A program made the position numbers and the translations under genes. From a virus: a stretch of 64,000 nucleotides of DNA. The notes below the pieces were generated by a model. The model did no database searches. It was not told the DNA's origin and was given only the letters and a program-made list of their open reading frames with translations. This document shows positions 4,374-11,552 of this stretch, piece by piece. Position 1 is the first letter of the stretch. Each line of letters opens with the position of its first letter. The stretch lies in the IMG/VR virus record IMGVR_UViG_3300047160_000733; one strand, written 5' to 3'.

Positions 4374-4775
4374 TTATAAATCTTTTTTACGCTTAACATC
4401 TGAGCAGTTAGAAAAAATCTGTACTCCCAGCGCTTCAGCTGTACGGTCTAAATGATAATGATTCTCAGTAGTGAACCACTCGGGGCGATCCGTCAAACAT
4501 TCCATCATTAAACGCATGGCTGTATTCTGATAGTGATCACCGTAACCATATTCAAACGGAACATAAGCAAGATCAATATACACATCTAAATTTTTATCGG
4601 TTAGTGGGTATTTAACCGGATCAACTCTGTTCGCTGTTTGGCGTGATACAAGGGCGCTTAGCTCTACGCTGTGATAGGTGTTACCGTAGGATGATTGGAA
4701 CCAACGACGCGCCACGATTGAGATTTCTTTGATTTCTTTGATTGAAACGGTGGCGATAATGTTTTTGTTTTTCAT
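4374..4775 (-). CDS. hypothetical protein
   Basis: 133-aa ORF (ARRWFQSSYGNTYHSVEL...). No function recognised. Confidence 0.7.
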   Translation of the reverse strand: MKNKNIIATVSIKEIKEISIVARRWFQSSYGNTYHSVELSALVSRQTANRVDPVKYPLTDKNLDVYIDLAYVPFEYGYGDHYQNTAMRLMMECLTDRPEWFTTENHYHLDRTAEALGVQIFSNCSDVKRKKDL

Positions 4776-4854: not shown

Positions 4855-5148
4855 TTATAAAAGAAAAGCAATCTCTTCTGCTTTTGCATCAACCACAAAG
4901 TAAACATGAGAACGATCACGCGCTCCCAGCGTGACGGCTAGATCCTCACACTCTCGCAGTGTACCAAATGCGGCGAACTCTTTAAACTTGTGATCATGGG
5001 TACGGTACAACACGCCATAATCACGGCTGACACTCTCCCAGCCTTTCGAGAACTCCGCCACCACTGCCGGATCTTTATAGCGTGATGCATTGATCGCGCC
5101 GTTACGCGCCGCCTGTTGCCCTTCAATGTAATATTTAGATACTTGCAC
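4855..5148 (-). CDS. hypothetical protein with Rmf-like N-terminal motif
   Basis: GTG start. YIEGQQAARNGAINASRYKDPAVVAEFSKGWES resembles the G-x-x-A-x-x-G ... P ... W-x-x-GW pattern of ribosome-modulation-factor-like domains. Based on recollection only. Confidence 0.55.
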   Translation of the reverse strand: MQVSKYYIEGQQAARNGAINASRYKDPAVVAEFSKGWESVSRDYGVLYRTHDHKFKEFAAFGTLRECEDLAVTLGARDRSHVYFVVDAKAEEIAFLL

Positions 5149-5709: not shown

Positions 5710-5886
5710 CTAGTTTAGCGGTTTAATTTCAACGTCCAGAACTTCACCACGCAACAATTCAAACGTATAGAAAAGATCCTGATACACTATAGAGACAACG
5801 GTTAAAACCCCTTCATTGTGCTGTGTGTCTGTTATGCTGTGGATCTTCCCGTATCTTCTGCAATCTTTGTATAGTCTGTTATTCAT
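5710..5886 (-). CDS. hypothetical protein
   Basis: ORF-track 5710..5916 trimmed to the ATG at 5886 (MNNRLYKD...) with AAGGAAAG RBS. The longer start overlaps the -10 at 5915-5920. Confidence 0.5.
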   Translation of the reverse strand: MNNRLYKDCRRYGKIHSITDTQHNEGVLTVVSIVYQDLFYTFELLRGEVLDVEIKPLN

Positions 5887-5914
5887 GGCTGCTTTCCTTG
5901 TATGTAGTCCGATC

Positions 5915-5943
5915 ATTATGGCTGTATATCGTGGCTAGGTCAA
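5915..5943 (-). promoter_or_regulatory. sigma70-type promoter
   Basis: Minus strand TTGACC-N17-CATAAT. Confidence 0.6.
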
Positions 5944-5964
5944 AGATTTTTATGATTTATTTTG

Positions 5965-5993
5965 TTGCTTTCTGTTTTTGTGTGGTCTATAAT
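5965..5993 (+). promoter_or_regulatory. sigma70-type promoter facing the ORF-free locus
   Basis: Plus strand TTGCTT-N17-TATAAT. Divergent from 5915-5943. No translatable ORF with an RBS follows it. Confidence 0.55.
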
Positions 5994-5999
5994 TCTGTT

Positions 6000-6540
6000 G
6001 AACTTAAGGAACAACGCGCCACCCCCACGGCGAAAAGGCGGGGCTAGGGCTTCGGCACAAGGTGGATCGCCGGTAGCTCGGCCTGAAAAAGTTTTGTAAA
6101 GATTGAAAATAATGCTTGATCGGTGGCGTGGTTCTGCTATTATTATCACATAGCGGGAACACAGAAACCGGAGTTCAAAACACCGGAGGTGCCCGCTATT
6201 CCGGTAATGAGAATGATTATCATTCAACAATCTAAATGCGAATGATTCGTATTTCGCCTCGAAAAAAATCCTCCGATGAAAAATAATTTTGATTTTGTGA
6301 AACCATAAAAAATTTTTTGCGCCCTACCCTGCCGTAACGATTACAAAACCGAATTTGAAAAATCGATCGAGATCCTTGGAAAAATTTTACCGCCCTACCC
6401 TTCTCGACAAATTACGAAAGCTACATCGAGAAACAGATCGAGATCCTAAATTTTGGTAGGTGTAGATTTTATGAGCGCCCTGCCCTGCCCGCTATATTGT
6501 GATTGCTAGATTGAAAAGTAGATCGAGATCCTAAAATGTT
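6000..6540 (+). ncRNA. candidate untranslated transcript (GC-rich structured 5' part plus three-repeat array); 3' end unknown
   Basis: Starts about 7 nt after the -10 of the 5965-5993 promoter. The only plus-strand ATG ORFs are 13 aa or shorter or lack an RBS. Several GC stems are present, e.g. AGCGGG...CCGG-AGTTCAAAACA-CCGG...CCCGCT at 6151-6197. Strand and extent are inferred. Confidence 0.3.
6319..6532. repeat. three bipartite direct repeats (58 nt each; starts 6319, 6390, 6475)
   Basis: Each unit is GCGCCCTACCCTGCC-like (15 nt) + 31 nt semi-conserved + GATCGAGATCCT (12 nt, identical in all three). The 31-nt spacing is exact in all copies. Inter-unit linkers are 13 and 27 nt. Confidence 0.9.
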
Positions 6541-6795
6541 AGGTATCCTTCTATTGCCTCAGTTATGTTTCTTACCGTGAGAATACTCAACTATTTCTGT
6601 GGATGCTGCCATTATGCGGGACACAGTGAGGAGATGTTCTTAATGGTGGTAGATTGTGTGGGAATATCTCTGAGGGTCTTACAATGGCCTGTAGGTATCT
6701 AGAATCTATCTTGAATCCATTTTCATCTCAAAACGAAACGAAGAAATATCCCACAAATATCACAGGCCTTTAAAATATCTAGGATCGGTTTTTGT

Positions 6796-7623
6796 CTACG
6801 GTTGGAAATCGCATCGGGCTTTCAAATATCCCAGTGGGTAGTCCTTACCGTTAAGCATTTTATACATCTTAATTTCATTCTCTGTTGGTGACAGGTAGTC
6901 CTCAAAGGAATCAAATAGGTCATCATACTTACCAAAGGATTGTTTGTACCCTTTATCAATGTACCCCTTAGATGGAACGTAGTCATAATGGGACTGTTTA
7001 AATGTTGTTACTCCTTCCTCAGATTCAAAACTTAGGCAAGTACCATCCCAACGTATATCACACCCTTGACGGTGATGGAGGTAATAGTGGGAGGAGTATC
7101 CTTCACCGCGCCGAGCTATGTCATACACGAACCTATTTGAATCGTGCATCCCAAGACGTGTCAGTAATTCCTTGTGCATCTGAGACAATCTTTTGTGTTT
7201 TATTTCACCGAATGTGAAGTATCCCTCGATAACCTCCTCTGCTTCAGACAGGCACTCCTCAAGTATTTCAGACACCTCATCAGACATCTCCCCGCTAGAC
7301 AAGGCTAATGATATGTTCTTGTGGATAAGGCACATCTTGTCATGCAGGGTGGAAGCTGTATCCTCCAGCCTTTCAGCATACTCTTCATACTCTAGACAAT
7401 CCGACACAGGAACCTCAAACCCTGATAGATAGTCTCCCTCCCTAGTTATATCTTCTTCTTCACTACGGGACATCTCTTTTACTGCTGACTCTATTGCAGA
7501 TTGGGTTTTCCTCAGCTCAGATACAGGCATCACTGGGCATTTATAGTAGTTGTTTGCTGTATGCTCTATGCCGCCTAGAATGTGGAAGTTTTGAACAGGT
7601 GTTGAGTTATTCTTAATGCTCAT
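6796..7623 (-). CDS. hypothetical highly acidic protein
   Basis: 275-aa ORF rich in D/E (EEEDITREGD, SEAEEVIEG, DDLFDSFEDY). Confidence 0.75.
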   Translation of the reverse strand: MSIKNNSTPVQNFHILGGIEHTANNYYKCPVMPVSELRKTQSAIESAVKEMSRSEEEDITREGDYLSGFEVPVSDCLEYEEYAERLEDTASTLHDKMCLIHKNISLALSSGEMSDEVSEILEECLSEAEEVIEGYFTFGEIKHKRLSQMHKELLTRLGMHDSNRFVYDIARRGEGYSSHYYLHHRQGCDIRWDGTCLSFESEEGVTTFKQSHYDYVPSKGYIDKGYKQSFGKYDDLFDSFEDYLSPTENEIKMYKMLNGKDYPLGYLKARCDFQP

Positions 7624-9956: not shown

Positions 9957-11552
9957 CTATTTGGCGTAACGATCAAAGTTCAGGGCTTTTCCGAACGGAG
10001 CTTGCCAAGAATCGTTGTTGAAGATAACCCACAGAGTGTTCTTGTATTTTTGACTCCACTTCTTACCTTTGTCATCCACACCCTCTTTTACTGAACCGAA
10101 GTAACCGTCCGTGAAGATGATGATCTGGTCGCAATCCTTGATCTCGCTATCAACAAACTTAAATGCACAGTGGCAATCCGTCCCGCCGGACGTAGTGATC
10201 TTGTACTTGACCAACTCTTTTATGTTCTTACGATCATACTTCTGTGGGTTAGCCGCGAATGTTGACCAACAGAACAGAGTGATCTCGAACTCATCAAACT
10301 GACTACCAAAGCCGGAAACCTCTGACCAAACCTTATTAAGTAATGCATCTGTGAATGAACCGGACACGTCGATGCCGATAGCTACACGGATTGTCTTACG
10401 TTTCGACTTGGAAGGCAACACAATACGCTGTGTGTTCTTAATTGCTCCACGGGCACGTAGTACACGTGTTAGCGACCCAGACCGACGGTGGGGCTTCTGG
10501 TACGTAATCTTCGTCCGGCGCATAGATGACAGGCGCTTGATCAGGTATTCAACATAGTTGATCTTTGGCTTAGTCAGAGTTTTAACTAATTCACGCGCTT
10601 CAGGTGGAGCTCCGGCACCCGCCGCTGTGGTAGCATTCACGATAGCTCGTTTCATAGATTCATCGTTGGAGTGCTTTTGGTCCTCCGTTAATCGAGGTTC
10701 AACAGAAGAGTCGATCCCCAAAGCCTTACCAACTTCATTGTTGGTGACATAATCGTCGTCACTATCACCTTGCTCGCCACCTCCGCTAGATGGTGTACCT
10801 GCGCCATGTCCTGACTCACATTTTGGTCCATCAGATTTCTGATTTGTAGGTGTGCCATCGCCCGCGCCCATATGGAAGTCATTACTCATCTTCCCTTTGG
10901 TATCTTTGTTCTTACTCATCAGATCTGTGTAGATCTGCTCTGCCGTCCAACCATCATACTTGTGGTTGATATAGATCTGGGCAAAAGATTCGAACTCTTT
11001 ACCCTCTTCAAAGGTATCCTGCCCCTTCTTGAACCAAGGGTTTCGGCTCATCGCGCAGGATTCCGCATGAGTCTGGATCAAGTCTCCGTTGATATAATAG
11101 TCAGCAGCAATGTTAAACATCACCGGATCGTAGCCCTTACCACGACTTAAGTGGTCACAGATAACGTGACGGACTTCATGCTCAAGGAAGAAGATAACTT
11201 CTTTCAGTGTCTTACGCTTGTAGAAGACATCAATTGACTTCTGGATCTTCTTTTTCTTCTTATCTGACACATTCATCTGAGAGATACGCTGTGAAACATT
11301 GTCCTTACGTTCATCACAGAACCCAGCAATGAATTCAGGGTTAAAGATAATGTCTCGACCATTTGTCGCAATAGTTGGTAGCCAACGGGTATCTGCATAC
11401 ACAGGCATGTTGCTCAACAACGTACCATAGAATGGGCGGTAACGCATAAGCTGGATCTTGGCTGCTTCAATCAGTCGGAATGCTTCTTTCGTTGTTCCCT
11501 TGATTAGGTCGCGCTCGTCTTCTGTCATCAATGCCGGATCGTTGTTTTTCAT
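9957..11552 (-). CDS. VWA-domain protein with N-terminal HExxH metallopeptidase-like domain
   Basis: HEVRH motif (FFLEHEVRHVICDHL). G/S/D-rich linker. C-terminal MIDAS motif DxSGS (IGIDVSGSF). Lies downstream of the AAA+ gene. Confidence 0.85.
   Translation of the reverse strand: MKNNDPALMTEDERDLIKGTTKEAFRLIEAAKIQLMRYRPFYGTLLSNMPVYADTRWLPTIATNGRDIIFNPEFIAGFCDERKDNVSQRISQMNVSDKKKKKIQKSIDVFYKRKTLKEVIFFLEHEVRHVICDHLSRGKGYDPVMFNIAADYYINGDLIQTHAESCAMSRNPWFKKGQDTFEEGKEFESFAQIYINHKYDGWTAEQIYTDLMSKNKDTKGKMSNDFHMGAGDGTPTNQKSDGPKCESGHGAGTPSSGGGEQGDSDDDYVTNNEVGKALGIDSSVEPRLTEDQKHSNDESMKRAIVNATTAAGAGAPPEARELVKTLTKPKINYVEYLIKRLSSMRRTKITYQKPHRRSGSLTRVLRARGAIKNTQRIVLPSKSKRKTIRVAIGIDVSGSFTDALLNKVWSEVSGFGSQFDEFEITLFCWSTFAANPQKYDRKNIKELVKYKITTSGGTDCHCAFKFVDSEIKDCDQIIIFTDGYFGSVKEGVDDKGKKWSQKYKNTLWVIFNNDSWQAPFGKALNFDRYAK

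Follow-up and report, generated by a model that had tools for sequence, protein, structure and literature searches.

The primary replication origin of phage T7 combines tandem promoters with an A/T-rich region, and the T4 origins oriF and oriG also depend on transcription. Pseudoknotted leader RNAs have likewise been described in phages, namely, the autoregulatory pseudoknot of T4 gene 32 and the antitermination RNA put of HK022. The classical operators of the iron repressor Fur overlap the −35 and −10 elements of the promoters that they repress. Here, we describe a locus in the 64,000-nt virus stretch IMGVR_UViG_3300047160_000733 (hereafter the window, to which all coordinates refer unless another genome is named) in which elements reminiscent of all three kinds of system are found side by side. 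To judge from its sequence, this module is made up of host-type promoters in tandem, a new pseudoknotted RNA, a stem-loop at the predicted 5′ end of a second transcript and a predicted array of phased Fur-type operators. The region that contains it is a non-coding control region that is conserved among virulent phages of the rV5-like and phAPEC8-like groups, which are widely used as therapy candidates.

Conservation and coding status of the region

In a sensitive blastn search, positions 6017–6253 matched 370 phage records, which belong to the Vequintavirinae and Stephanstirmvirinae. With megablast, the central 190 nt alone were matched in other phages, including Escherichia phage 4MG (84%) and Pectobacterium phage phiTE (77%). 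The identity of the non-coding DNA amounts to 77–84% in the comparison with 4MG and 72–77% in that with phiTE, and the 3′ part of the segment is also matched, by blastn, in rV5-type and T5-type phages. The homologous segment occupies a constant position within a gene-free gap of ~850 bp, which in 4MG and phiTE (at ~39.6 kb in the latter) lies between two leftward gene blocks. A scan of metagenomes for further homologues returned chance matches alone.

The gene on the right-hand side of the gap is syntenic and encodes a protein of 275 amino acids, of which 25 residues can be aligned to the 4MG counterpart (E = 1e-4) and none to the phiTE counterpart. The non-coding DNA has thus retained its identity while the adjoining protein diverged and must therefore be under far stronger constraint. 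The segment is a genuine, strongly selected non-coding module, beyond what chance would produce; locally, it is far better conserved than the adjoining syntenic gene, yet sequence records leave it without annotation or wrongly list it as small open reading frames (ORFs).

As the original prediction for this locus had stated, there is no credible ORF downstream of the first promoter. The plus strand contains no substantial ORF at 5994–6795, the ATG at 6112 opens a frame of 13 codons, and the next credible ORF starts at 6796. The small ORFs annotated across the segment in some records are inconsistent among themselves, and the homologues differ by indels of 2, 4, 5, 6, 8 and 15 nt. Because indels that are not multiples of three separate the homologues, the segment is non-coding, and together with the inconsistent annotation they rule out a coding role.

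Tandem promoters

Promoter P1 (TTGCTT-N17-TATAAT; 5965–5993, plus strand), with a predicted start near 6000, is present in all 30 aligned homologues, where its distance from the conserved block is constant, in the form TTGACA or TTGCAA, N17, TATAMT. Among these homologues, the first T of the −35 element and positions A2 and T6 of the −10 element are invariant. P1 lies back to back with a leftward sigma-70 promoter (TTGACC-17-CATAAT; 5943–5915, minus strand), which serves the left-hand early gene block; this leftward partner, part of the original prediction, is confirmed by the promoter scan. P1 had been described as an orphan, a view that has to be given up, since it belongs to a tandem set of two or three conserved promoters. 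The one that had been missed, P2 (TTGATC-16-TATTAT with an extended −10 TG; 6116–6143, plus strand), was identified by the promoter scan and has a predicted start at ~6150; the TTG of its −35 element and A2 and T6 of its −10 element are invariant in the 30 homologues. In both promoters, the spacers vary freely across the alignment while the diagnostic positions are fixed.

The hexamer type of P1 is also seen in rV5 and Av-05. Phage Av-05 carries P1, P2 and a third promoter, all directed rightward into the repeat array described below, and rV5 contains the promoter–hairpin–box module twice, in tandem. In the window, a weak promoter-like site (6259–6287, plus strand) is located inside the linker, where relatives have a clear third promoter. 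In most relatives, the spacer of P1 is a G+C-rich hairpin with stems that differ among phages yet remain complementary and, in several cases, with a GNRA-type loop (GCAA or GAAA). Probably, this hairpin terminates a small gene that lies upstream on the plus strand, and the terminator thereby overlaps the promoter. The locus in the window has neither such a gene nor the spacer hairpin; the promoters most like its P1 are the third one of Av-05 and the second one of rV5.

Directly upstream of the −35 element of P2, most relatives carry the full direct repeat GTAAAGAATTGTAAAG (GTAAA-N5-GTAAAG), which has the same format as the CpxR operator of E. coli cpxR-cpxP, GTAAAacaacGTAAAG. The alignment places a single GTAAA half-site at 6096–6100 (plus strand) in the window, with no second half-site in the stretch, so that the CpxR-type repeat GTAAA-N5-GTAAA is missing here. 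In Klebsiella phage BIS47 (~4730–4760 of its locus, minus strand), this direct repeat also precedes another promoter.

Structured RNAs downstream of P1 and P2

The plus-strand RNA from 6000 to 6260 folds with a z-score of −3.46, and none of 200 shuffled sequences folds as well. Its beginning is indeed GC-rich, as originally reported, with 70% G+C at 6020–6059 compared to ~43% for the window. Covariance modelling and pair counting delineate an element of ~90 nt (5998–6091, plus strand) in the leader of the predicted P1 transcript. A covariance model built from 21 sequences retrieves 38 copies among the fetched loci, without exception on the strand downstream of P1.

The element begins with a hairpin of 4 bp, stem 1 (CGCC-ACCCCAC-GGCG; 6017–6020 with 6029–6032), the C-run in the loop of which (6022–6026) can pair with a downstream GGGG (6040–6043) to form an H-type pseudoknot. 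Most phages pair CCCC with GGGG, whereas two have CCAA/UUGG and one each has CCAG/CUGG and CCA/UGG; these four variants amount to covariation for the pseudoknot. A short variable hairpin follows (6047–6058; RNAalifold and pair counting), in which three of the four pairs change on both sides (AU 19/GC 18, CG 29/GC 7 and CG 34/GC 2 in the covariance-model alignment) and for which none of 500 shuffles equals the observed covariation score. The stretch after it, AAGGTGGATCGCCGGTAGCTCG (6059–6080), is invariant in the alignment of homologues.

The P2 transcript is predicted to start (~6150) with the first base of another stem-loop (6150–6199, plus strand), for which there is covariation and which individual folds of the homologues show to be their common architecture. 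Its outer stem pairs ATAGCGGG with CCCGCTAT, its inner stem pairs CCGG at 6168–6171 with CCGG at 6183–6186, and the apical loop contains a conserved motif, GAGnnCAAACACC here, with GAGACAAACACC kept across variants. The pairs of the outer stem alternate between AU (9), GC (5) and GU (4), between GU (12) and GC (9), and between GC (15) and GU (4). The structure belongs to the plus strand, because the G–U pairs would be A–C mismatches on the minus strand. Thus, the compensatory changes expected of a structured non-coding RNA are found in the variable hairpin, the pseudoknot and the P2 outer stem.

The structured untranslated RNA that had been anticipated is therefore borne out by the covariation of the variable hairpin and the pseudoknot, although the fine structure had to be revised. 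The short stems pointed out originally are all present (CGCC-N8-GGCG at 6017–6032 and GCCG-GTAGCT-CGGC at 6069–6082 among them), but several are not conserved, and the one at 6069–6082 is specific to this sequence; the nested AGCGGG/CCGG…CCGG/CCCGCT exists as well, but starts at 6152 (6152–6197), not 6151. Neither the pseudoknot nor the 29-bp phasing of the boxes discussed below had been noticed.

Could the hairpins instead be minus-strand terminators or insulators between the two leftward gene blocks, the plus-strand RNA being functionless? On the minus strand, the scan reports a terminator-like site at 6032–6017, phiTE has a minus-strand terminator annotated inside the P2 hairpin, and the right-hand block has no other obvious terminator, according to the scan, ahead of the leftward promoter. 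However, the G–U pairs of the P2 stem (32 cells) speak for the other strand, stem 1 comprises only 4 bp with a C-rich tail on the minus strand, and the covariation of the pseudoknot as well as the invariant promoters directly upstream favour a plus-strand RNA, so that this possibility appears very improbable.

The Rfam/Infernal scan suggested along with the original prediction placed the RNA in no family: there was no match at gathering score anywhere in the window, two matches at E ≤ 10 within 5800–6800, both on the minus strand, far below gathering scores and one of them outside the element, and no match at E ≤ 1 in six homologous loci. ARAGORN found neither tRNA nor tmRNA genes in the window. 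When the genomes of 185,579 bacterial species were scanned with a 20-nt leader pattern with 19 specified bases, the single match was a phage fragment in a metagenome-assembled genome; the leader therefore has no bacterial counterpart. Our literature search found no paper describing this leader RNA. Nothing supports the sponge or anti-defence RNA that had been considered for this locus; the pseudo-ToxI of phiTE, a type III antitoxin-like RNA, can be ruled out as its equivalent, as it occupies a separate locus elsewhere in the phiTE genome. If functional as predicted, the pseudoknotted RNA, with its riboswitch-like conservation, would join a short list of RNAs from virulent phages.

In phage ‘cardinal’ (683–1392 of locus L288) and in locus L011 (7025–7132), a gene for an HNH homing endonuclease, which brings its own ribosome-binding site, sits directly behind GATCGCTGGTA as an insertion, and the leader forms the 5′ untranslated region of that gene. 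This point of insertion suggests that the invariant GGTGGATCGCCGGTAGCTCG stretch is the homing target. Locus L011 contains two copies of the leader.

No second copy or antisense target of the hairpin loop was found within the window. Klebsiella mydoviruses carry an additional copy of the P2 hairpin together with a box, ~7 kb from the main locus; in KB57-like phages, 34 bases of the extra copy are identical to 6181–6214, and the extra copy of BIS47 has a few mismatches.

Fur-type boxes

Seven bases after the P2 stem-loop, a distance that is fixed in the homologues, begins box 1, AATGAGAATGATTATCATT (6206–6224), a 19-bp Fur-type 7-1-7 palindrome that scores 32.7 bits with a matrix derived from the phage boxes. 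Box 2, AATGCGAATGATTCGTATT (6235–6253), is weaker (25 bits) and lies 29 bp from box 1. The perfect 7+1+7 palindrome at 6211–6225, on which a likeness to the enterobacterial Fur box had been founded, and the further half-site GAATGATTCG at 6240–6249 are both there; the agreement of 14/19 positions given for this likeness understates the resemblance, since in the 7-1-7 reading the core of box 1, TGAGAATGATTATCA (6208–6222), has one mismatch to the Fur unit TGATAATnATTATCA. The homologous box of 4MG, TGATAATGATTATCA, equals this unit, matching at all 14 specified positions when the scoring also allows G at position 4 and C at position 12, as in the phage variants. Homologues contain from one to five boxes, mostly 29 bp apart.

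A third strong box, AATGATAATGATTCTCAGT (4451–4469; 28.3 bits), is situated inside the coding sequence of the ORF at 4374–4775 (minus strand), and its core at 4453–4467 also has one mismatch to TGATAATnATTATCA. Overall, three boxes of at least 20 bits occur in the window, compared to 0.01–0.03 expected by chance from shuffles. The third box encodes TENHYH and lies ~140 nt upstream of the start of the next gene, and the strong boxes of three relatives are all intergenic.

To assess specificity, a position matrix built from the phage boxes alone was run across a 20-kb stretch of the E. coli K-12 ent-fep cluster. The top six matches all fall into the fepB-entC, fepD-entS and fepA-fes intergenic regions, and nowhere else in the cluster does the matrix reach 10 bits, so that in silico the boxes share the specificity of footprinted Fur sites. 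For two of the matches, the coordinates differ from those published by Chen et al. for strong Fur clusters (PMC2189734), in both cases by 768 bp, which is consistent with a constant difference in numbering between genome versions. The sequence specificity of the boxes thus appears to be that of Fur, the iron repressor of the host, and binding of Fur is predicted. Within a box, one half-site often has G and the other T at position 6, with no compensating change, a pattern that fits a site for a dimeric protein on DNA and speaks against RNA hairpins. We found nothing in the literature on Fur boxes in phage genomes.

Linker and repeat array

Beyond the boxes, a linker (6255–6318, plus strand) leads into a repeat array. 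It had been described as an AT-rich tract, correctly as to its connection with the repeats, but its A+T content is only 65–72%, that is, moderate. The array consists of three units of ~70–85 bp each (6309–6532, plus strand), each starting with an A/T run and ending in (C/A)GATCGAGATCC; the plan of the unit is an A/T run, ATTACG and TGAAAA..GATCGAGAnCC. This architecture is kept in 4MG and in locus L003, and at 0–1 mismatch the core motif of the repeats is found nowhere else in the 64-kb stretch. The array would be the target of the predicted rightward transcription. Separate from it, near the 3′ end of the gene for the 275-amino-acid protein, there are AAATATC(C/A)CA boxes (6744–6833). Both the repeat array and these boxes are conserved in 4MG and phiTE.

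This arrangement invites the alternative that the region is a transcription-activated replication origin, with promoters that open or prime the linker and repeats, an RNA that is a primer precursor and boxes that are sites for an architectural protein. Two or three promoters facing a gene-free region with 3–4 conserved direct repeats (CGATCGAGAnCC core), the extreme purifying selection on the region compared with the flanking genes and the annotation, in 4MG, of a replication initiation protein ~3.5 kb away would all fit such an origin. However, we found no DnaA boxes, no IHF sites, no clear enrichment of GATC and no change of GC skew at the locus, the linker is only moderately A+T-rich, and the direct repeats are 71–85 bp apart, unlike typical iterons. 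Pfam and PHROGs assign no function to the neighbouring genes, none of which thus carries a replication annotation, and our literature search found no paper on an origin for these phages. Given the lack of DnaA and IHF sites and of a skew signal, an origin is therefore possible but unsupported, and we consider it unlikely; a packaging site is a possibility just as open as an origin. Farther away, a protein of 531 amino acids encoded at 9957–11552 (minus strand) contains a DUF2201_N domain (putative metallopeptidase) and a VWA-like DUF2201 domain.

Box arrays in T5-like and other viruses

The terminal repeats of T5-like phages also contain arrays of Fur-type boxes with the same 19-bp sequence, which score 24–30 bits. 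In T5 (AY587007, 9473–9631; locus L294), the boxes correspond to the palindromes E, G/H and I of the annotation and to its direct repeat C; they are found immediately to the left of the 7.9% nick, within the part of the terminal repeat known as Repeat Region 3. The shear point of first-step transfer calculated by Davison falls into this region, which the published analysis ascribes to DnaA boxes, with Fur unmentioned (10.1101/866236). Our literature search found no paper describing Fur-type boxes in T5. If the T5 palindromes at the nick and shear point are indeed Fur-type boxes, the stop of first-step transfer becomes a testable question, and Fur would be a candidate for the long-sought injection-stop factor of T5.

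Another array is found in phage Kenya-K18 (2380–2600 of its locus), and dense arrays, with up to 10 boxes in 350 bp, occur in unrelated unclassified IMG/VR contigs (loci L049, L110, L051 and L083). Near-match searches of the phage collection for two of the metagenomic contigs with box arrays returned no match.

The presence of boxes in unrelated T5-like phages, outside any promoter and hairpin context, would be expected if they acted as a Fur decoy, that is, if the multiplying phage boxes soaked up Fur and derepressed host iron uptake and other Fur-repressed genes independently of any transcript. Titration of Fur by multicopy boxes is an established effect, exploited in the plasmid Fur titration assay, and the phage boxes are strong, multiple and confined to non-coding DNA. 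However, box 1 keeps strictly to its 7-nt distance from the hairpin and the boxes are phased at 29 bp, which suggests that their role is local and structural, and some phages have one box only; we regard a decoy as quite improbable.

A model of Fur-gated early transcription

Fur-gated non-coding early transcription is the best single account of these features, although we hold it tentatively, at somewhat less than an even chance, on the strength of the sequence comparisons described above. We infer that P1 and P2, read by the host sigma-70 polymerase, fire rightward into ~800 bp without a gene. The P1 transcript would fold into the 4-bp hairpin, the C-rich loop of which would pair with the downstream G-run, followed by the variable hairpin and the invariant stretch in single-stranded form; the P2 transcript would start with its conserved stem-loop. 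Fur–Fe2+ bound to the phased boxes may then act as a roadblock or insulator, such that the iron status of the host would decide whether the early non-coding transcripts end as short structured RNAs or run into the repeat array. The pseudoknotted leader could act in cis on the untranslated transcript, for example by stabilizing it or protecting it from termination.

Several observations weigh against this model. The −35 element of P1 is weak in the window, matching the consensus at 3/6 positions only, which is why P1 is absent from the promoter-scan list. Neither stem 1 nor the closing stem proposed for the leader shows compensatory changes, and both are unproven, stem 1 being invariant and therefore uninformative on covariation. 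The extra hairpin-plus-box copy of BIS47 (4972–5080 of locus L026, minus strand) lies behind an intrinsic terminator and lacks its own promoter; therefore, the P2 hairpin is not simply a 5′ cap or stabilizer of its transcript. No convincing promoter overlaps the boxes on either strand, and the boxes, located ~56–103 nt downstream of the predicted P2 start, lack the overlap with the −35 and −10 elements of a repressed promoter that is typical of a Fur operator. Finally, at one symmetric position the boxes favour GAGAAT over the GATAAT of Fur (63% G), which therefore leaves room for a different dimeric protein.

Such a protein could be a phage-encoded dimeric regulator with Fur-like specificity, the region being its operator cluster for early/middle switching. 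The G at the symmetric positions 6/14 is systematic, and in these phages the boxes are concentrated in early non-coding regions. However, the boxes are also present in T5-like phages and many unrelated viral contigs, and we know of no regulator common to rV5/phAPEC8-type phages, T5-like phages and those contigs; moreover, the phage-derived matrix recognizes genuine Fur operators very specifically. A phage regulator thus seems improbable.

Returning to Fur, a more far-reaching proposal would be that at least three groups of virulent enterobacterial phages (rV5-like, phAPEC8-like and T5-like) recruit Fur to phased arrays in their non-coding control DNA, in the rV5/phAPEC8 groups together with the pseudoknotted RNA and mostly a CpxR-type site, so that the iron and envelope status of the host licenses early non-coding transcription and thereby replication or genome processing, with Fur as the candidate injection-stop factor in T5. 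Taken as a whole, this proposal is speculative and rather unlikely. If true, these would be the first lytic phages in which the host metal regulator Fur, and perhaps CpxR, is wired into the early programme. Our literature search found no paper on the transcriptomes of these phages.

Comparison with known systems

By analogy with the transcription-dependent origins of T7 and T4, the locus has tandem promoters that face an untranslated, A/T-richer region with repeats; it differs from them in its host-type promoters, structured RNA and operator array and in having no mapped initiation site. The leader may likewise be compared with the T4 gene 32 pseudoknot and HK022 put, as all of these are short elements with a pseudoknot or two helices that come directly after an early promoter and give way to an unstructured A/U-rich tract. 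Unlike those RNAs, the leader described here matches no sequence or Rfam family and, in most phages, has no gene downstream.

Repeat Region 3 of T5, the candidate injection-stop region, resembles the locus in that a box array in a gene-free region is followed by other direct repeats. However, promoter, pseudoknot and hairpin module are all absent from the T5 region, where the boxes are spaced by 29 or 35 bp.

With the Fur operators of Enterobacteria, the phage boxes share the 19-bp box, the 15-bp core of box 1 being one position off TGATAATnATTATCA. Whereas the Fur clusters of the host overlap at 6-bp offsets (PMC2189734), the phage boxes are isolated 7-1-7 units at 29 bp, prefer GAGAAT, lie off the promoter and belong to a virulent phage. 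The combination of promoters, a structured untranslated RNA and phased Fur-type sites has not yet been described for virulent phages.

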